This document shows, one piece after another, positions 3,119 to 11,718 of a DNA stretch of 46,362 nt. The notes beneath the pieces are model-generated. The model was given only the letters and a program-made list of their open reading frames with translations, was not told where the DNA came from and searched no databases. The stretch is from Anaerotignum sp. Its GTDB lineage: Bacteria > Bacillota > Clostridia > Lachnospirales > Anaerotignaceae. Each line of letters starts with the position of its first letter. The stretch's first letter is position 1. Position numbers and translations under genes: made by a program. Location: positions 1 through 46,362 of the forward strand of contig JBKEAS010000128.1 of NCBI GenBank assembly GCA_047972635.1, written 5' to 3'.

Positions 3119-3972
3119 ACGTTCACCTGCTTTACTAAATCTAGCAATACATGCTTAGCTTCGTCTATTGTAAACACATCCAAAGGCACATCAAATCCTT
3201 TTTCTTTTAGTGCCGAAAAAACATAACTTACTTGTGGTGCTGCAAGCCCCATATCTTCTAGCTCCTTGACTTTACAAAAAACTTCTTTTGGCGTCCCCAT
3301 AGTCGCTACCTTGCCTTCATGCATCACAATAATCCGATCCACCAGTTTCGCAACATCCTCCATACTATGGCTAACCAAAATAACAGTAATGCCTCTTTCT
3401 TTATGCAGACGTTTAATTGCCTGTAGAATTTCGTCACGACCCTTAGGGTCTAGTCCAGCGGTAGGTTCGTCCAAAATAAGAACCTCAGGATTCATCGCCA
3501 AAACGCCAGCGATCGCCACACGACGCTTTTGCCCTCCCGATAGATCAAAGGGTGACTTTTCATATAAGTCTGATGATATCCCAACCGTTTCCAGTGCAGA
3601 GACAACATTTTTGTCAATGTCCTCTTTTGAAAGCATCATATTAGTGGGGCCAAAAGCCACATCTTTATAAACACTCATTTCAAAAAGTTGATACTCTGGA
3701 TATTGAAAAGCCAAACCAATACGACGACGTACCTCTTTCAGCTTCGCTTTATCCTTATGAATGTTATCGCCATCCACTAATATTTCACCCTTAGTCGGAC
3801 TGATAATTCCATTTAAATGCTGAATTAATGTCGACTTACCCGAACCTGTATGTCCAATTAAGCCAATAAACTCGCCTTTTTTTATTTCTAAAGAAACATC
3901 ATCCAATGCTTTTTTTTCAAAAGCAGTATCCTTATTATAAATATATGTTAAGTTGTTAATTTTAATTGACAT
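3115..3972 (-). CDS. ecfA2: ECF transporter ATPase A'
   Basis: Walker [31 protein letters not shown] and [10 protein letters not shown]. Confidence 0.96.
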
Positions 3973-4814
3973 ATTGCACCTACCATTTCTTCGACTGTCA
4001 AAATATCCGCGGGTAATTCGATTCCTTCCTTACGCAAAAGATGTGCAACCTCAGTCACCTGCGGTACATCCAAACCGTATTGTTGAAGACGTTCAACCTG
4101 CGAAAAAATCTGCCTAGGTTTCCCCTCCATCACTACCTCACCGTCATCAATCACATAAACCCGATCTCCACGAACTGCTTCATCCATGTAGTGAGTAATC
4201 AAAATAATGGTAATGCCCTCTTCTTTATTTAAGCGCTCAATCGTTTCTATCACTTCTTTTCGACCCACAGGATCAAGCATCGCGGTAGGCTCGTCCAAAA
4301 TAATGCAATCTGGCTTCATCGCCAAAACGCCTGCAATGGCAATTCTTTGTTTCTGACCGCCCGAAAGCTTTGATGGCGTGTGGGTGGCATACTGTTGCAT
4401 ACGCACCGTTGCCAATGCTTCGTCCACACGACGGCGGATTTCTTCTGGTTCTATTCCCATATTTTCTGGCCCAAAGGCAATATCTTCTTCTACAATGGTC
4501 GCTACCAATTGATTATCCGGATTTTGAAAAACCATACCAGCCTTTTGTCTGATTTCCCAAACCAGTTCACCATTTTTTGTATCCATACCCTCTACCCATA
4601 TCGTGCCATCTGTTGGCTCTAATAAAGCATTAATATGTTTTGCAAAAGTAGATTTTCCTGATCCATTATGGCCCAAAACCACCACAAATTCGCCTTTTTC
4701 AATTTCTAAGGTAACCGACTTTAAGGCGGCAACCTTTTCTTCTTCAGTACCGTAGTCTGTTTCATGCATTTTTAAATATTCGTATGTTAGACCTTCGGAC
4801 TTCACCATTTTCAT
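3948..4814 (-). CDS. ecfA1: ECF transporter ATPase A
   Basis: [25 protein letters not shown] and [10 protein letters not shown]. Confidence 0.96.
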
Positions 4815-4883
4815 AATTTCACCTTTTCACGTAGAGACTTCTCTCCTCTTAGTCTATGGCAAGCTATGCTCATAGCTATCAAT

Positions 4884-4912
4884 AGAATACGTTTTTTCAA
4901 GAAAAAAGTCAA
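4884..4912 (-). promoter_or_regulatory. Putative SigA promoter of ecfA1-ecfA2-ecfT
   Basis: TTGACT (4912-4907)-17 bp-TATTCT (4889-4884). Confidence 0.65.
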
Positions 4913-5018
4913 GGAAAATACCCTTTGTACTTTATCAATATGCAAGCGTACTCACCACACACATTCTCCTCTATTCGTTTTCAAATGAGAGCACATTATT
5001 CTAATGAAGAAAATTTTT

Positions 5019-5060
5019 AAAAAAAGAGCTGACGATTTTGCAAGCGTCAGCTCTTTTTTA
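5019..5060 (-). terminator. Intrinsic terminator closing the sigma54 operon
   Basis: AAAAAAGAGCTGACG-N10-CGTCAGCTCTTTTTT, about 35 bp after the amidase stop. Confidence 0.88.
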
Positions 5061-5094
5061 TATTTCTTTATCTTTTCATTACAAAAGATTTTTA

Positions 5095-6078
5095 TTATTT
5101 TCTGTTAAGAAATTCATCCAAATTCTTTTCAAACTGATCTACATCAGGCATAATCTCAATCATATTACCAATTTGACAAACGCCAATAGATTTTACATCT
5201 TCCTCATATTCATGTGGATCAACAGGTGTTTTTCTTATTGTTTCAAACACAGGTGCCTTAGACACATCGTCTGCATAAGGCATTGGGAAGTTATAATCTC
5301 TTAAGTGCTGTAAATAATGGTCAACAAACATTGTGCCGTACTGTCTTGTTCTTGTTACCAAGTCCAAATCTAAGGTAAGGGTTGCAATTGTAGCTTCTTG
5401 TCCAGCTTCCCAAAGAAGTTGGCCTTCAGGGTTAACCACCAAAGAATTTCCATACATATGAATGTTATTAAAGAATCCAACACCATTTGTAGAAATCATA
5501 TATGCTTGGTTTTCAATCGCACGAGCAAAATGCAATGGTTTGTTGAAGTAGTATAATTCCTGTGGATCCATTGTTAACTTAACAAGAATTTCTGCACCCA
5601 TCAAAGTTTCATTTCTAGAAATTTCCGGGAAATTCAAATCGTAACAAATCTGTACGCCAACTTTGGTCTGTTTCTCAGGAATATCAAATACAACATAACG
5701 TCTACCTGGTTCTGCAAATGCTTCAGAAGGACGCCAAGGAGCCATCTTTCTGTAAACATCTACCAATTCACCTTTAGGGTTAAAAATTGGTGCAGAGTTA
5801 TAGTAAATACCTTCTGGAAGGTCAGCATGTTTTTCATACATTGTTCCTGGAATGAAGTAAATTCCATATTTTTTAGCAATTCCCGAGAAAAATTCTGTCA
5901 TTGCACCAGGGATATATTCAGGTGTGAAACACTGTATACATTCAACACCTACAATAAGTTCTGGCTTATGGTATCCACTCATAAGTGCTGCCACTTTTTC
6001 TTCGATATACTTCAAATTCACCACTGTATCTTGACTAATTGGCATCTGAATTAAACCTACATTTAAAAATCTTCCCAT
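5095..6078 (-). CDS. Carbon-nitrogen hydrolase (nitrilase superfamily; aliphatic amidase/formamidase-like)
   Basis: Glu-Lys-Cys triad in VGVEC, YRKMAPW and QICYDLNFPE, plus ARAIENQ. ATG 6078 lies behind AGAGAGGT and next to the MFS stop. Confidence 0.9.
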   Translation of the reverse strand: MGRFLNVGLIQMPISQDTVVNLKYIEEKVAALMSGYHKPELIVGVECIQCFTPEYIPGAMTEFFSGIAKKYGIYFIPGTMYEKHADLPEGIYYNSAPIFNPKGELVDVYRKMAPWRPSEAFAEPGRRYVVFDIPEKQTKVGVQICYDLNFPEISRNETLMGAEILVKLTMDPQELYYFNKPLHFARAIENQAYMISTNGVGFFNNIHMYGNSLVVNPEGQLLWEAGQEATIATLTLDLDLVTRTRQYGTMFVDHYLQHLRDYNFPMPYADDVSKAPVFETIRKTPVDPHEYEEDVKSIGVCQIGNMIEIMPDVDQFEKNLDEFLNRK

Positions 6079-6079
6079 C

Positions 6080-7306
6080 TTATTCAACCTCTCTTTGTTT
6101 CGAAATAATTTTTAGTATCAATAAGCAGGCGATCACACTAAAAAGTGCCACGCCAGCACAAACCATCCATCCAATATTCCAATATCCTTTTATACCAAAC
6201 ATAATACCAACCACAACTGGCGCAAAAGTCATGCCTATATCCCCGCACCCACCAATAAAGCCTGTAGCCATCGGCAAGGAATCGGGATTAAAAATTTCTG
6301 GCAAAATGGAATAAAAAGCGCCAAAGCCCCAAGCAGAACCAAAAGAAAAACTCATAACTGCCAAATAGAATGTCATAAAATTTGCTAAATCCAACAACAG
6401 CAACATTGCTATCGACAAAATAGTAATGACACACCCAAAAGAATATACCATAACCCTAGCAAACCCTTTATTTGTCATCCTAGCTGCAAACGCATCACTC
6501 GCCTTACCAGAAATGATACAGGCACTAACGATACCGATTGTTATGCCAGATAAAATCTTACCTGTTTCCATCTCTCCATAGCCCAAATAGCTACTAAAGA
6601 GTGGCATATCAATAGAGATTGCTTGTACCGACCAAGTTGTGGAAATTAGTGCTACAAATAAAAGCCAAACAATAGGCATGGTCAGCATTTTTGAAAAAGG
6701 AACATCAGTTTTTTCTTCTTCCCTCTGATCTTGTCCCTCAAGAGCAGGGTTTTCTTTTATTGTTAACAGCCAAATAACGGCTGTAATTAAGTGCAAAACC
6801 CCTAGTGCCCAATACGATTCTATCCAACCGTATTGAGCAATAATATAACCACTAAAGGTTCCACCAATACCTGCACCACCGTAAAAAATTCCATTAAAGA
6901 CTGCAGTAGAAATACCTCTGTTTTCTTCATCCACCCATCCCATAATGATAAGCAAAAAGACAGGAAATACTAAAGATGAGAGCCCTTGCACAAACTTCAG
7001 CACATAAAATGCGAAAACAGAAGTAACATAAGGCGTTAACACCAACGCCGGTATTAAAGCAATCATACCTAACACGAATGCTTTCTTAGCGCCTATTTTT
7101 TTGTAAAGAATACCAGAAACAAACATAGCAATAATGATTGCAACGGTTTTTATCGTATCCCCTACAAGTAGAACCTCTGGAGCTACCTGCATTTTTTCTG
7201 CTAAGTAATTAATGGTCATTGATGATTGTGGAAATCCAGCCGATAAAATACACCCAATAAAAGCATTCAGAAAAACCACATACCATGTATATACTTTTTT
7301 ACTCAT
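6080..7306 (-). CDS. MFS transporter
   Basis: 408 aa with about 12 hydrophobic segments and motif A-like GILYKKIGAKK and GKASDAF. Confidence 0.88.
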   Translation of the reverse strand: MSKKVYTWYVVFLNAFIGCILSAGFPQSSMTINYLAEKMQVAPEVLLVGDTIKTVAIIIAMFVSGILYKKIGAKKAFVLGMIALIPALVLTPYVTSVFAFYVLKFVQGLSSLVFPVFLLIIMGWVDEENRGISTAVFNGIFYGGAGIGGTFSGYIIAQYGWIESYWALGVLHLITAVIWLLTIKENPALEGQDQREEEKTDVPFSKMLTMPIVWLLFVALISTTWSVQAISIDMPLFSSYLGYGEMETGKILSGITIGIVSACIISGKASDAFAARMTNKGFARVMVYSFGCVITILSIAMLLLLDLANFMTFYLAVMSFSFGSAWGFGAFYSILPEIFNPDSLPMATGFIGGCGDIGMTFAPVVVGIMFGIKGYWNIGWMVCAGVALFSVIACLLILKIISKQREVE

Positions 7307-7339
7307 TTTTCCACCATTTGCAAATACAAAAAATTTAAA

Positions 7340-8743
7340 TTATAAAAGGTCACTAAAACCTTCTGTTGAGTATTCTTTACCAGCTTTTTTAGCTTCCAAA
7401 GCATTGCTAATTGCAACAAATTTTGTTTTTGTAAGAGGGTACATAATTACAACAAGTCCAGCCGCTATACCAAAAACACCAGGAAGTGCTGTGTTGATGA
7501 GCATAATTGCTTTATTTGTAGCTTCTACAGCACCTTCGATGCCGTACTGTCCCCAAGCCAAAACCTGTCCTGTTAGCCACATAGCAAATGCTGCACCCAA
7601 TTTCTGACAGAAAGACATCAATGCTGTAATAGCACCTTCGATTCTTTCACCTGTTTGGAACTCACCTAATTCAGTAATATCGTACATCATAGAATAATAT
7701 AGAGTCCAGTATGTGGAATTACCAAAGCAATAAATGAAGATCATCGCTAATAACATAAACAAGGAAGAGAAACCGATAAAATAGAATACAACCAAAGTAG
7801 CAGCAGAAATAATCATACCATTCATGTAAACTTTCTTTTTATCGAATTTAGCAGCCAATTTATTAATAACTGGCAACCATACCATAGCAAAGATAGAAAG
7901 GCTGGCCAAAACCATAGACTGTATTCCTGCATCATAGCTTAATGTGTTGTTGATCAAATACACAATACCACCACTGCTTAAAGAAGAAGTACAAGACCAA
8001 AGTAAAACAGAAACTGCCAAAGGTTTTACACATTTCATTTTGAAAATTTTACCGTAGGATTTAAAGATATCCTTAAACTCTGACTTTGGAACATCTGCCA
8101 TTGATAATTCTTTGCCTTTTGTGCTATTCCAACAAATTAAAATAACAAGAAGAATTAAAATTCCAAAAGTCGTACCAACATTTCTCCAACCATCAACTGC
8201 AGTACCACCTGCTTGTTCAGTCATAGAAATAATCATAGGTGGTGTGGAAGAAGCGATCAAAACTGCTGCATACATGAAATAACTTGCCCAAACTCTAAGT
8301 GTTGTTCTTTCTTCGAAATCCTGAGTAATCTCAGCACCTAAAGCAAAATAAGGAATTACGTAAGCGGTGTATGCTGTCCAAAACAACATAGAAACGATAA
8401 TGAAATATCCATTTTTCGCTGTTTCAGAGAAATTTACATCATTAAATAATAAAAACATAATAAGTGCGTAAGGAATAGCTGCAGCAAGCATAAATGGTCT
8501 TCTTCTGCCGCGTTTGCTACGCATATTGTCTGTACAGTGTCCAATAATTGGATCTGTAATGGCATCCCACATAACTGCGATCAAAGAAATCGCACCTGCG
8601 ATTGTTGGTGAAATTCCGATAACGTCTGTCAAAAAGAATAAGAAAAAGAAATAAAATACATTGAAACCGATGGAATCACCCATCTGACCTATGCCGTAGC
8701 CTAATTTCGTTTTTATACTCAACTTTTCCGTGCTAGTGGTCAT
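7340..8743 (-). CDS. GPH-family (MelB-like) cation symporter
   Basis: KLGYGIGQMG, WDAITDPIIG..D and RGRRRPF signatures. ATG 8743 fits SD AAGGAGG better than GTG 8749. Confidence 0.9.
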   Translation of the reverse strand: MTTSTEKLSIKTKLGYGIGQMGDSIGFNVFYFFFLFFLTDVIGISPTIAGAISLIAVMWDAITDPIIGHCTDNMRSKRGRRRPFMLAAAIPYALIMFLLFNDVNFSETAKNGYFIIVSMLFWTAYTAYVIPYFALGAEITQDFEERTTLRVWASYFMYAAVLIASSTPPMIISMTEQAGGTAVDGWRNVGTTFGILILLVILICWNSTKGKELSMADVPKSEFKDIFKSYGKIFKMKCVKPLAVSVLLWSCTSSLSSGGIVYLINNTLSYDAGIQSMVLASLSIFAMVWLPVINKLAAKFDKKKVYMNGMIISAATLVVFYFIGFSSLFMLLAMIFIYCFGNSTYWTLYYSMMYDITELGEFQTGERIEGAITALMSFCQKLGAAFAMWLTGQVLAWGQYGIEGAVEATNKAIMLINTALPGVFGIAAGLVVIMYPLTKTKFVAISNALEAKKAGKEYSTEGFSDLL

Positions 8744-8883
8744 TTCCACTCCTCCTTAAATCATAAACAACTTTCGGTTACATTGCGAAGCCTCTCTACA
8801 GTAGGGCCCTTTACCATAGAAAAAAACTTTTGATCCATCCTGTCACAACTTCAGTATATAGCAACAGGTGATAGTTATATTAA

Positions 8884-8902
8884 TAGCAATATCCGTGCCA
8901 AA
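8884..8902 (-). promoter_or_regulatory. Sigma54 (-24/-12) promoter
   Basis: TTTGGCACGGATATTGCTA matches TGGCAC-N5-TTGCW with exact GG-N10-GC spacing. It lies between the activator and the transporter operon. Confidence 0.93.
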
Positions 8903-8976
8903 CCCAAAAAAATAGACAAATTACTTGTTTTATCAGCATTCTGACGATTTCAATTTTTTGATACCATGCGATGATT

Positions 8977-9082
8977 TGTTCAGATATTTTTACACTTCAT
9001 CATCATAATTTGCTTCATTCGCCTAATTTATAACATTTATACGTATGTTCAAAATATTTTACAGTGTTCACTTTTAACGACA
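8977..9082. promoter_or_regulatory. Three putative upstream activator sequences (TGT-N12-ACA)
   Basis: TGTTCAGATATTTTTACA (8977-8994), TGTTCAAAATATTTTACA (9046-9063) and TGTTCACTTTTAACGACA (9065-9082), about 80-180 bp upstream of the -24 element. Confidence 0.75.
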
Positions 9083-9095
9083 CTCATTTCTCCTA

Positions 9096-10523
9096 CTATA
9101 TAATATTATATTTTTCAATTTTATTATACAGGCTAGTTCTGGAAATTTTTAATAATTTTGCAGCCATACTTCGATTTCCTTTGGTCATTTCTAATACTTT
9201 CATAATGGCTTCTCTCTCTGCACGGTCTCTAATCTCTTCCAAAGGATTTCCTATGGAATGAAATAAAGTGTCATTTTCAGAAAGTAAAGCTTCCGTTAAA
9301 AAATTCCCAAAATGCGCCGGAAGCAATAGGCCTTCTTGGCAATTATTCATAGCTCTTTCCAGTATATTGTATAATTCTCTGACATTTCCTGGCCAGTCGT
9401 GATACATCAATAAGTCCAAGGCTTCCTTTGAAATACCTGTCACATTTTTCCTCATCGTTTTATTTAAGCGTTTGATCTGGCTCTCTGTTAATACTGCGAT
9501 GTCTTCTTTCCTCTCCAGTAACGGTGGTACACGAATTTCTACCACATTCAAACGATAATATAAATCCTCTCGAAATTTTCCTTGTGCAACCATTTCTTTT
9601 AAGTTCTTATTTGAGGCAGCGATTACACGGATGTCGACAGGAACTTTCTTGCCCCCAATTAATGTAACCTCTTTTTCCTGCAAAACCCTTAGTAGCTTGG
9701 GCTGCACATGATACGGCAGGAGATCAATTTCATCAAGAAAAATTGTACTTTTATCAGCCATTTCAAATCGCCCCACAAAACCGCCCTTTTTTGCTCCCGT
9801 GAAAGCCCCTTCCTCGTAACCGAACAATTCACTTTCCACAAGATTTTCAGGGATTGCCGCACAATTAATTTCTATCATTTCTTTACTTCTTCTTCTGCTT
9901 ATATTATGAATGGAATGAGCCACCAATTCCTTGCCACAGCCCGTAGGCCCCATAATCATAACGGTTGATTCAGACTGAGAACTAAGATGAATTTTTTTAC
10001 GTAATTCAACAATCTCAGTACTCTCTCCAATAATATCCGATACACAGTATTTTACCCGATCCAGTTTATTGGAAAGTTCATAAATCGTATTCACAACTTC
10101 TTTTAGGTTTAGAAATCCTTTCATCGAGTAGTCTACGACCTTATCCAGAAAAGATTTTAGCGCATGGTCCTCCGAAAATATGTCGTAGTCGACAGCACCT
10201 ACTAATTTATCTCCTCGAAAAACAGGCTTAATTTTGGCAACATTTGTTACACCAACAGCAAAATAAAAGCAATCTGGATTTTCTTGTTTTTTCTCAAGCG
10301 TTTCACAAATCTTACTTAGAGGATGAACATCTAAAATGTGTTTCCCCACCACATCTTTTGAAATAGGTCTGCCTACAATCACCTCAACAGCTTTGTACAT
10401 ATCCGGTGAAAAGTACTTGATCTTTCCTTCCTCATCTACAATAACCATATTGTCTATTGCATCAAACACATCTCGACATTCTTCTAAGGTCATATCAAAG
10501 TTGTTCATTTCTTCGTCCTTCAA
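9096..10523 (-). CDS. Sigma54-dependent transcriptional activator (PAS-like sensor, AAA+, Fis HTH; RocR/PrdR-like architecture)
   Basis: GPTGCGKE, ESELFGYEEGAFTGA, FLDEID, FREDLYYRLNV, WPGNVREL and the C-terminal HTH GNRSMAAKLLKISRTSLYNK. TTG start. Confidence 0.95.
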   Translation of the reverse strand: MKDEEMNNFDMTLEECRDVFDAIDNMVIVDEEGKIKYFSPDMYKAVEVIVGRPISKDVVGKHILDVHPLSKICETLEKKQENPDCFYFAVGVTNVAKIKPVFRGDKLVGAVDYDIFSEDHALKSFLDKVVDYSMKGFLNLKEVVNTIYELSNKLDRVKYCVSDIIGESTEIVELRKKIHLSSQSESTVMIMGPTGCGKELVAHSIHNISRRRSKEMIEINCAAIPENLVESELFGYEEGAFTGAKKGGFVGRFEMADKSTIFLDEIDLLPYHVQPKLLRVLQEKEVTLIGGKKVPVDIRVIAASNKNLKEMVAQGKFREDLYYRLNVVEIRVPPLLERKEDIAVLTESQIKRLNKTMRKNVTGISKEALDLLMYHDWPGNVRELYNILERAMNNCQEGLLLPAHFGNFLTEALLSENDTLFHSIGNPLEEIRDRAEREAIMKVLEMTKGNRSMAAKLLKISRTSLYNKIEKYNII

Positions 10524-10837
10524 AATTACCCCTCACATTCTCTTGAAATAACCCAAACTATTTGGTAAAAATAATCTCACTTTGCATATATCAATTGCAT
10601 TAAAAAATATTTTTCTCTTAAATTGCTATCCATACCTTCTCATAAATAATTTATAACTTTCATTTGCCATAGTATGCCAAGGCAAAACTGTTTCGATGTA
10701 GCTCGTATCCTATTGAACCTATAAACCTACATAAGAATTTGTGCACTTCGTTTTATTCTATACTATGAAAATATAATTTTCTCAAATACATCGTATTTCC
10801 ATCTCTAGCTACAGCAAAATTTGCATTCATTGTAACT

Positions 10838-10866
10838 ATTATATCATCATATTATACGCAAGTAAA
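10838..10866 (-). promoter_or_regulatory. Candidate SigA promoter of the activator gene
   Basis: TTTACT-17 bp-TATAAT with an extended -10 TG. The context is AT-rich, so a chance match is possible. Confidence 0.4.
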
Positions 10867-11017
10867 TTTTAAAAACACTTATTTGAGTGGTGATTTTTGT
10901 AAAAAAATATAAATCAGCTTATCTTCTTGATATGCCCTTCACTTATTCAAATCACATTCTTTATGTCTCAAATAAATCCTTCGTAATAAAAAATCTGACT
11001 CTTTCTAAAATCAGCAC

Positions 11018-11063
11018 AAAAAAAGAACCTATAGATTCTGATTTAACAAAACCTATAGGTTCC
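11018..11063 (-). terminator. Intrinsic terminator of the alpha operon
   Basis: GAACCTATAG...CTATAGGTTC stem followed by T7 on the minus strand, just after rplQ. Confidence 0.85.
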
Positions 11064-11069
11064 TAATAA

Positions 11070-11612
11070 TTATACTAATTCGATGAATACTTCCATCGCG
11101 CCGTCGCCTTTTCTAGCGCCTAATTTCACGATTCTTGTGTAACCACCGTTACGACCTACATACTTAGGTGCAATCTCATCAAACATCTTAGCAGCCATGT
11201 CTACCTCTTTGCTCAAGCTTCTAACTTTTTTGCCATCAGCAGGAACTTCAGTTACTGGGTAGATGTAAGCTAACATCTGACGTCTAGCAACAAGTCTAGA
11301 AGGTCTATCCTTCTTAACTGTTTTTTTAACTTCATCATAAACAGTTACTTTCTTACCGTTTACAACTTCTTTCACACGCTTACCATTTGCGTCTTTTTTT
11401 GCTACCTTAGCTGTCACTTCTACTTCATCGAAGTTGTCTTTTTCTTTTACAGCCAATGTAATAAGCTTTTCAGCGATTCTTCTTACTTCTTTCGCTCTAG
11501 TTTCTGTTGTTTTAATTTTGCCGTGATACAACAAATTTGTTACTTGGTTTCTTAACAATGCCTTTCTTTGAGGTGTTGTTTTACCAAGTTTTCTATAACC
11601 GGATGCATGCAT
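11070..11612 (-). CDS. rplQ: 50S ribosomal protein L17 (long, 180 aa form)
   Basis: [25 protein letters not shown] and [21 protein letters not shown] 11612 behind AAGGAGG. Confidence 0.97.
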
Positions 11613-11718
11613 GGTTCGTATCCTCCTTGTTGATACCCATACGATAGTGCCCGCCACCACAGCTCATCGGTCTTATGTGAAGGCGTAATCGTACAGTAAT
11701 TATAGTAACAAGCAAAGC

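Follow-up and report, generated by a model that had tools for sequence, protein, structure and literature searches.

What is carried and cleaved by the products of an operon in which a GPH-family cation symporter, a second transporter of the MFS superfamily and a nitrilase-superfamily amidase follow a sigma-54 activator of their own? The question is raised by positions 5019..10523 of the window, by which we mean the whole 46,362-nucleotide stretch of Anaerotignum sp. DNA analysed here (assembly GCA_047972635.1, contig JBKEAS010000128.1). The best explanation, to which we assign a probability of roughly 0.7, is that these four genes were acquired horizontally as a module, inducible by its substrate, for the catabolism or scavenging of a nitrogenous, non-sugar amide or ureide.

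Predicted sigma-54 control and operon anatomy

The activator gene (9096..10523, minus strand) encodes a protein of 475 amino acids from a TTG start behind GAGGGG. Its Pfam domains (Sigma54_activat PF00158, 218 bits; AAA_lid_14; HTH_8, 47.7 bits) and its motifs (the GAFTGA loop EEGAFTGAKK, Walker A GPTGCGKE and Walker B IFLDEID) supply both the AAA+ module with GAFTGA and the DNA-binding helix-turn-helix by which a sigma-54 enhancer-binding protein (EBP) is recognized. The preliminary description of the locus had called the protein PAS-AAA+-Fis, and the last two modules are confirmed by Pfam. The PAS sensor domain is predicted by fold only: Pfam placed PAS below threshold in the N-terminal domain (best model PAS_10, E 0.014), while an AlphaFold model of residues 1-165, with 21 homologues as input, was PAS-like (pLDDT 75.9) and found its best Foldseek match in the cytoplasmic PAS domain of CitA (5fq1, E 5e-7, TMt 0.75).

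Downstream of the activator lies a predicted sigma-54 -24/-12 promoter, TGGCACGGATATTGCT (8885..8900, minus strand). It is the sole match to TGGCAYN5TTGCW in the window, where 0.12 would be expected, and the element is identical in L003, one of the related loci described below; the 1.8-Mb genome holds six such matches, vs none for the reversed control. Three palindromes of the form TGT-N12-ACA precede it on the same strand as upstream activating sequence boxes: TGTCGTTAAAAGTGAACA (9065..9082), TGTAAAATATTTTGAACA (9046..9063) and TGTAAAAATATCTGAACA (8977..8994), at -183, -164 and -95 from the -24 element respectively. Such sites number 21 in 17 related upstream regions, compared with 1.3 +/- 1.1 in shuffles. 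The three-box operator (approximately -183, -164, -95) recurs in L003, L010, L015, L032 and L043, with the spacing of box 1 the same in all of them, and the inner bases of the operators vary among paralogues. The consensus element thus stands upstream of its target and near an activator, in a genome that encodes sigma-54. Only three true sigma-54 activators are present in this genome, and the organism's predicted sigma-54 regulon is very small. The other five consensus -24/-12 sites of the genome (G000) are located at C86:2452, C158:3241, C242:220, C256:6054 and C263:2549, and the other two true activators on C235 and C256. For the activator gene itself, a sigma-70-like promoter candidate (TTTACT-17-TATAAT with TG; 10838..10866, minus strand) is a consensus match alone, in a region that holds 29 such matches vs 24 expected.

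The promoter is followed by the genes for the GPH/MFS_2 cation symporter (7340..8749, probably starting at ATG 8743), the MFS_1 transporter (6080..7306; MFS_1, 139 bits) and the amidase (5095..6087; 327 amino acids, probably from ATG 6078 as in its homologues), all on the minus strand. They form a tight operon, with a 33-nt gap between the GPH and MFS genes and with the MFS stop and the amidase ATG adjacent. An intrinsic terminator, a hairpin followed by a T run (5020..5059, minus strand; -21.3 kcal/mol, z -7.0), closes it, and none of 200 shuffles folded as well. Activator, enhancer boxes, consensus promoter, operon and terminator are therefore all found where the preliminary description of a self-contained sigma-54-controlled cassette had placed them; what has to be amended is its view of the MFS transporter as unrelated to the GPH protein, because the two belong to different families of the same superfamily. 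The MFS protein weakly resembles the anion:cation symporter family (TIGR00893, 83.8 vs a cut-off of 395).

We do not propose a riboswitch or attenuator, because the GPH leader of ~140 nt has no Rfam match (nothing reached any gathering score over 4800-11100) and, folded over 126 nt, no significant structure in either the window or L003 (z 0.46 and -0.27 respectively). The leader does contain a block, AAGGGCCCTACTGTA followed by TTCGCA.TG.A.CC (8797-8812, minus strand), that is conserved with L003 (~5295-5310) amid otherwise diverged leader sequence.

The surroundings of the cassette point to its origin. Over its first 16 kb the window carries genes on the minus strand only, in the order rpsD, rpoA, rplQ (11070-11660), the four cassette genes, ecfA1 (3948-4814), ecfA2, ecfT and truA. 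Similarity to five same-genus genomes stops at 11069, the rplQ stop, and in four of the five picks up again at 4918-4927, upstream of ecfA1. These breaks delimit an insert (4928..11068), a block of ~6.1 kb with the whole cassette inside; the rplQ-ecfA1 gap is 6.26 kb here vs 0.9-1.4 kb in genomes G004, G009 and G012. The amidase was found in two of 15 same-genus genomes (its own included) and in none of 16 further genomes of the same family and order. Nor was it found, at E <= 1e-80, in any of the 399 other genomes that could be scored out of 400 sampled evenly from the class. In the second same-genus carrier the cassette sits elsewhere in the chromosome, and the rplQ-ecfA1 gap measures only 0.9 kb. 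The cassette is an insert, and horizontal acquisition is its best explanation. A mobile element was considered and set aside: the insert holds neither integrase nor transposase, and a phage-type integrase was seen near one related locus only (L034). In another lineage, rplQ is likewise followed directly by an activator-amidase-GPH set (L032, 6280-10425), and insertions may have landed repeatedly at the rplQ/ecfA junction. The neighbouring ribosomal protein L17 (11070-11660, minus strand) has an unusual form: at 196 amino acids it far exceeds the 97 positions of the Pfam model, its Pfam match is split in two, and it shows a partial match to the 'sunset domain variant' of L17. This long form is 92-96% conserved in the five same-genus genomes.

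A recurrent core of activator, symporter and amidase

Whether the gene set co-occurs in other genomes was asked in a scan of one genome per species, in which neighbours were identified by tblastn and clustering around 43 loci with amidase homologues (55-86% identity). An activator stands upstream of the amidase in 20 of the 43, a GPH gene adjoins it in 17 (a contig end truncates an 18th, L030), and both occur together in 14; a cassette-type MFS gene is found in nine. All four genes are united in only six loci (L003, L006, L024, L026, L029 and L042). Co-occurrence was thus borne out for the EBP-GPH-amidase set, and to a much smaller degree for the complete foursome. Of the 20 loci with an activator, 16 have a strict -24/-12 pattern in the stretch that separates it from the target, and the remaining four a near-consensus element; the strict pattern is absent at that position from loci lacking an activator. 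The divergent MFS genes of L024, L026, L029 and L042 each have a -24/-12 element of their own. From these arrangements, the conserved core appears to be activator-GPH-amidase, and the MFS gene a frequent accessory with a separate predicted sigma-54 promoter. Unrelated housekeeping genes flank the activator-GPH-amidase modules. That the four genes are chance neighbours, brought together by insertion and without joint action, is extremely improbable, since the same gene order, promoter and operator architecture is met again in many lineages and at many places in the genome.

The same scan bears on what the second transporter does. It had been suggested that the GPH protein imports an amide conjugate, that the amidase splits it and that the MFS protein exports the unwanted product, so that only one half (ammonia, amine or acid) is kept. 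Two different transporters under one regulator would suit this scheme, as would the occurrence of the four-gene set in two arrangements and the weak likeness of the MFS protein to organic-anion carriers (TIGR00893, oxalate/formate antiporter family), a carboxylate being the expected product of amide hydrolysis. However, the cassette-type MFS gene is missing from eight of the 14 EBP-GPH-amidase loci, and L004, L005 and L007 hold MFS-amidase pairs with neither GPH nor activator, where the MFS protein would be the only nearby carrier. In other loci the transporter adjoining the amidase is a DASS protein (three loci), NhaC (one) or an APC basic amino acid/polyamine-type permease (five). A single adjoining transporter that can be exchanged in this way, as uptake systems would be, is in each case most simply an uptake route. 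We therefore consider the scheme in its full form doubtful, and find no support for its export step.

Five of the loci (L009, L011, L012, L028 and L040) share one gene row: a divergent GNAT gene, the APC permease, a saccharopine-dehydrogenase-like gene, a 3-aminobutyryl-CoA ammonia-lyase-like gene, the amidase and a gene for a protein of 103 amino acids with no known function. Amidases of this family may thus also serve, in this row, a pathway for amines or amino acids that has yet to be mapped. In L018 a class-III aminotransferase gene and then a methylmalonate-semialdehyde dehydrogenase gene lie directly upstream of the amidase; the aminotransferase clusters with the putrescine-aminotransferase-type gene of L022, which is two genes upstream of the amidase there, the gene between them, adjoining the amidase, encoding an amidohydrolase.

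In a quick maximum-likelihood tree of 42 amidases and one outgroup, from which the L006 copy was left out, the activator+GPH context occupied the basal branches and recurred in most clades; by this distribution it is probably ancestral. The window amidase grouped with that of L003 (support 98), and then with those of the MFS-only loci. One metagenome-assembled genome contains seven paralogous amidase loci (L007, L008, L010, L016, L019, L034 and L043). Four of the seven have their own activator, and three of these four have TGT-N12-ACA operators that differ in their inner bases; L034 has none. From its operators, this genome looks like a set of insulated parallel regulons.

The amidase, the symporter and their likely substrate

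The amidase belongs to the nitrilase superfamily, as first described: it scores 125.9 bits against CN_hydrolase PF00795 (cut-off 23.2), and E49, K114, C148 and E122, which include the Glu-Lys-Cys triad, are invariant in a family alignment of 26 sequences. The Lys and Cys align with the catalytic motifs of AmiE. The AlphaFold model (pLDDT 91.7) has the alpha-beta-beta-alpha sandwich fold and retrieved 213 PDB matches at E <= 0.001, CN hydrolases throughout among the matches listed. The best full-length matches, C-terminal extension included, are AmiF and AmiE (5g3p, TM 0.77 over 329 columns), while Nit2, PH0642 and the plant N-carbamoylputrescine amidase (CPA) are covered over the core only. 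Identity to any solved structure is at most 28%.

None of the specific families within the superfamily claims this enzyme. It falls below every NCBIfam equivalog cut-off, including those for AmiE (NF009802, 86.3 vs 427), AmiF (NF009803, 66.7 vs 406) and AguB (TIGR03381, 66.2 vs 410.25), and its named homologues are all labelled just 'carbon-nitrogen hydrolase family protein' or 'predicted amidohydrolase'. The family profile scores ~100 bits alike against AmiE, the Nit2/Nit3 omega-amidases and PH0642/archaeal amidases, and because these scores are nearly equal we regard the family as a separate branch of the superfamily. On profile evidence, the amidase thus appears to lie outside all characterised clades. 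A residue-by-residue argument about the pocket was set aside, as the alignment around the invariant MDPQEL motif shifts between alignments. Completion of an agmatine pathway by the amidase was likewise rejected, no agmatine deiminase having been found in the genome (93.8% complete).

The structural matches raise the possibility that the cassette detoxifies short aliphatic or xenobiotic amides or nitriles (acrylamide, formamide or chloroacetamides), with an AmiE/AmiF-type enzyme and the MFS protein as efflux pump. AmiE and AmiF are the best single-sequence as well as the best structural matches, one host (L014) is by name a chloroacetamide degrader, and MatE efflux genes lie beside three loci. 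Against this, the equivalog scores given above are far under the AmiE and AmiF cut-offs, a cation-coupled symporter of 12 helices would be superfluous for small uncharged amides, and up to seven paralogous modules in one genome suit related nutrients better than one toxin. We consider detoxification improbable, and an amide or ureide used as a nutrient remains the preferred reading.

The symporter is a GPH protein by both family models (TIGR00792, 237.8 vs a cut-off of 231.35; PF13347, 248.5 vs 27), and is the only MFS_2 gene product in the genome over the family's own cut-off, the weak second match being the cassette MFS gene. MelB, for which residue roles in the cation site and in galactoside contacts have been described (PMC8329300), served as reference. 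In a confident alignment of helices I, II, IV and V, the MelB cation-site residues Asp55, Asp59 and Thr121 are kept as D62, D66 and T128, and D62 and D66 are present in all 19 amidase-linked GPH proteins. By contrast, the galactoside residues K18, D19, D124, W128 and R149 are replaced by D, S, V, F and S, and the score against the MelB equivalog is 166.7 vs a cut-off of 456. The Asp at the MelB-K18 position, too, is found in 19 of 19.

No sugar context was seen for these carriers. Among the scanned neighbours of the GPH-linked loci there is no glycosidase, sugar kinase, isomerase or other sugar-catabolic gene, which extends to all loci scanned what had been observed for the window. Five genomes with amidase loci encode between one and 12 GPH paralogues, and we inspected the neighbours of 12 GPH genes that are not beside an amidase of the cassette family, 11 from G431 (L075-L085) and one from G432 (L086). 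None adjoins a glycosidase, and eight share a gene row with an amide/amidine-type hydrolase: Peptidase_S58 in two loci, each of which has an activator and a -24/-12 element as well; Amidohydro_3 in four, of which one holds NhaC and a further CN_hydrolase besides; agmatine deiminase (515 bits vs a cut-off of 382) in one, with an amino-acid permease and Fe-ADH; and a DDAH-like enzyme in one, with an amino-acid permease. Two further paralogues are accompanied by Fe-ADH alone and by a 235-amino-acid protein with no known function next to a BKACE/CoA-transferase operon, the neighbours of the remaining two being uninformative. Asp or Glu occupies the MelB-K18 column in ten of the 12. A single genome accounts for twelve GPH/MFS_2 paralogues, several with sigma-54 promoters. 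In L075 (93-3316, minus strand) a sigma-54 promoter lies ahead of an operon for BKACE, 3-hydroxyacyl-CoA dehydrogenase and CoA-transferase A/B; the activator from which this operon diverges faces a GPH operon too.

Import of a glycoside, hexuronide or sugar amide (e.g. a uronamide or a glycosylated amino-acid amide), with the amidase merely trimming an amide group, must be weighed at this point. The GPH protein does pass the subfamily model, and loss of the galactoside residues is described as normal for GPH members with other sugars (PMC8329300). The missing sugar genes count against sugar import, as do the single MFS_2 gene over cut-off in the genome and the company kept by the paralogues, amide/amidine hydrolases and amino-acid permeases. 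So do several of the host genera (Anaerovorax, Acidaminobacter), which we take to be asaccharolytic fermenters of amino acids or amines. A sugar substrate is therefore unlikely. That the GPH protein imports a non-sugar amide conjugate, as initially proposed, is supported as far as a nitrogenous, non-sugar substrate is concerned; its chemical identity we infer. We prefer this class because members of the GPH clade are partnered by hydrolases, because sugar genes are absent and because the host lineages are presumably for the most part amino-acid and amine fermenters.

Beyond the substrate class, there is an even chance that the amide or ureide also carries a free amino group, the leading guesses being an amino-acid or omega-amino-acid amide or an N-carbamoyl amine. 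A free amino group is suggested by the invariant Asp in the GPH pocket, by the APC, aminotransferase and ammonia-lyase contexts and by the S58 partners. A link to RamA of Pseudomonas, a CN_hydrolase of similar length, comes from an automatic ESM Atlas cluster label ('(R)-stereoselective amidase', feature-based score 0.97) that carries no alignment or E-value, and is a lead only; we presume that RamA acts on beta- and gamma-amino carboxamides.

Several points weigh against the proposed substrate or its refinement. The amine hypothesis leans in part on the substrate ranges that we assume for RamA and for DmpA/BapA. The DASS contexts and the anion-like MFS protein point to anionic rather than cationic substrates. 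As the amidase profile scores are about equal, neither a primary amide, a carbamoyl nor an omega-amide reaction is singled out. GPH paralogues partnered by other hydrolases share only 28-47% identity with the cassette protein, and the compounds that they carry may not be the same. Finally, the lost galactoside residues exclude a MelB-type pocket and not every sugar, because these residues are described as conserved only among MelB orthologues (PMC8329300).

In the mechanism that we propose, the activator gene would be transcribed from its own promoter, and the cytoplasmic PAS domain of its product would bind an inducer. The AAA+ ring would then assemble on the three TGT-N12-ACA sites and open the -24/-12 promoter, from which a single transcript would run through the GPH, MFS and amidase genes as far as the hairpin. 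The GPH protein, as a Na+/H+-coupled symporter with a remodelled pocket, would import a small, polar, nitrogenous non-sugar compound, and the cytoplasmic Glu-Lys-Cys amidase would hydrolyse a non-peptide C-N bond in it (a primary amide or a ureido/carbamoyl group), yielding a carboxylate or an amine, plus ammonia. The MFS protein would be a co-regulated second carrier, an uptake route or substrate/product exchanger more probably than a pure exporter. The direction of transport, the inducer and the class of substrate are the parts of this scheme that we infer.

The cassette may belong to a wider, so far unrecognised system in amino-acid-fermenting Clostridia, a tentative idea to which we give slightly less than even odds: a GPH clade with an acidic residue at the K18 position would have been repurposed for the import of amide, ureido or guanidino compounds, each member being teamed with a hydrolase from a separate superfamily (CN-hydrolase, S58, Amidohydro_3, agmatine deiminase or DDAH-like) and often with a private PAS-type sigma-54 activator. 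If so, part of the large GPH/MFS_2 family would be routinely misannotated as sugar transporters and would in reality feed amide or ureide nitrogen to amino-acid fermenters of gut and sediment. On that view, the amidases, which form a rare family rich in paralogues, would be markers of nutrients that have yet to be mapped (amino-acid amides or carbamoyl amines, perhaps) and that these bacteria scavenge for ammonia and fermentable acids or amines. The differing inner bases of the operators would let up to seven paralogous modules run in one genome without cross-talk. Small, self-contained and with a clean inducible promoter, the module could also provide activator-operator pairs as orthogonal sensors.

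Relation to known systems

A survey of clostridial sigma-54 regulons covers 57 species and lists 39 EBP regulons in its Table 1 (Nie et al., 2019; PMC6615313). None of the 39 shares the composition of the cassette or has an amidase or GPH target, consistent with the initial statement that no such pathway has been described, and the main text of that survey makes no mention of amidase, amidohydrolase, nitrilase, carbon-nitrogen, symporter or hydrolase. Nor did literature searches on sigma-54 and carbon-nitrogen hydrolases in Clostridium, on the nitrilase superfamily in gut bacteria, or on Anaerotignum and Sinanaerobacter amidases bring up a description of the module. The cassette appears to be an inducible uptake-plus-hydrolase operon with an uncharacterised amidase branch and a repurposed GPH clade. 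Its closest known pieces are AmiE/AmiF amidases, MelB-type GPH carriers and PrdR-like activators, and judged by family models it does not belong fully to any of the specific families that these represent.

Each piece shares the general design of its counterpart. With AmiE and AmiF (2uxy, 2plq, 5g3p, 2dyu) the amidase has in common the CN_hydrolase fold, the Glu-Lys-Cys triad and second Glu, a length of ~330 amino acids and the C-terminal extension; it is, however, only 22-24% identical to them, and unlike the Pseudomonas-type ami operon (amiEBCRS) the cassette lacks AmiC, AmiR and AmiS, its only domains being EBP, MFS_2, MFS_1 and CN_hydrolase. AguB/CPA and beta-ureidopropionase are of the same superfamily and act on ureido compounds bearing an amine or a carboxylate, and the plant CPA structures 5h8i/5h8j are among the fold matches; AguB differs in that the cassette amidase reaches only 66 bits of the 410 required and that its genome has no detected agmatine deiminase. 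The activator resembles PrdR-type clostridial activators and the surveyed EBP regulons in its PAS-AAA+-HTH_8 architecture, upstream TGT...ACA-type boxes and -24/-12 promoter, and regulons of that kind govern the catabolism of nitrogen compounds (Nie et al., 2019; PMC6615313). Its best NCBIfam model is indeed PrdR (NF041552), yet at 372.3 bits it stays below the cut-off of 795, with the first 126 profile positions unmatched. The symporter, lastly, retains the architecture and cation-site residues of MelB and the GPH family, and departs from MelB in the replacement of all five main galactoside contacts, with an invariant Asp for Lys18, and from the usual GPH setting in having amide hydrolases, not glycosidases, as its genomic partners.

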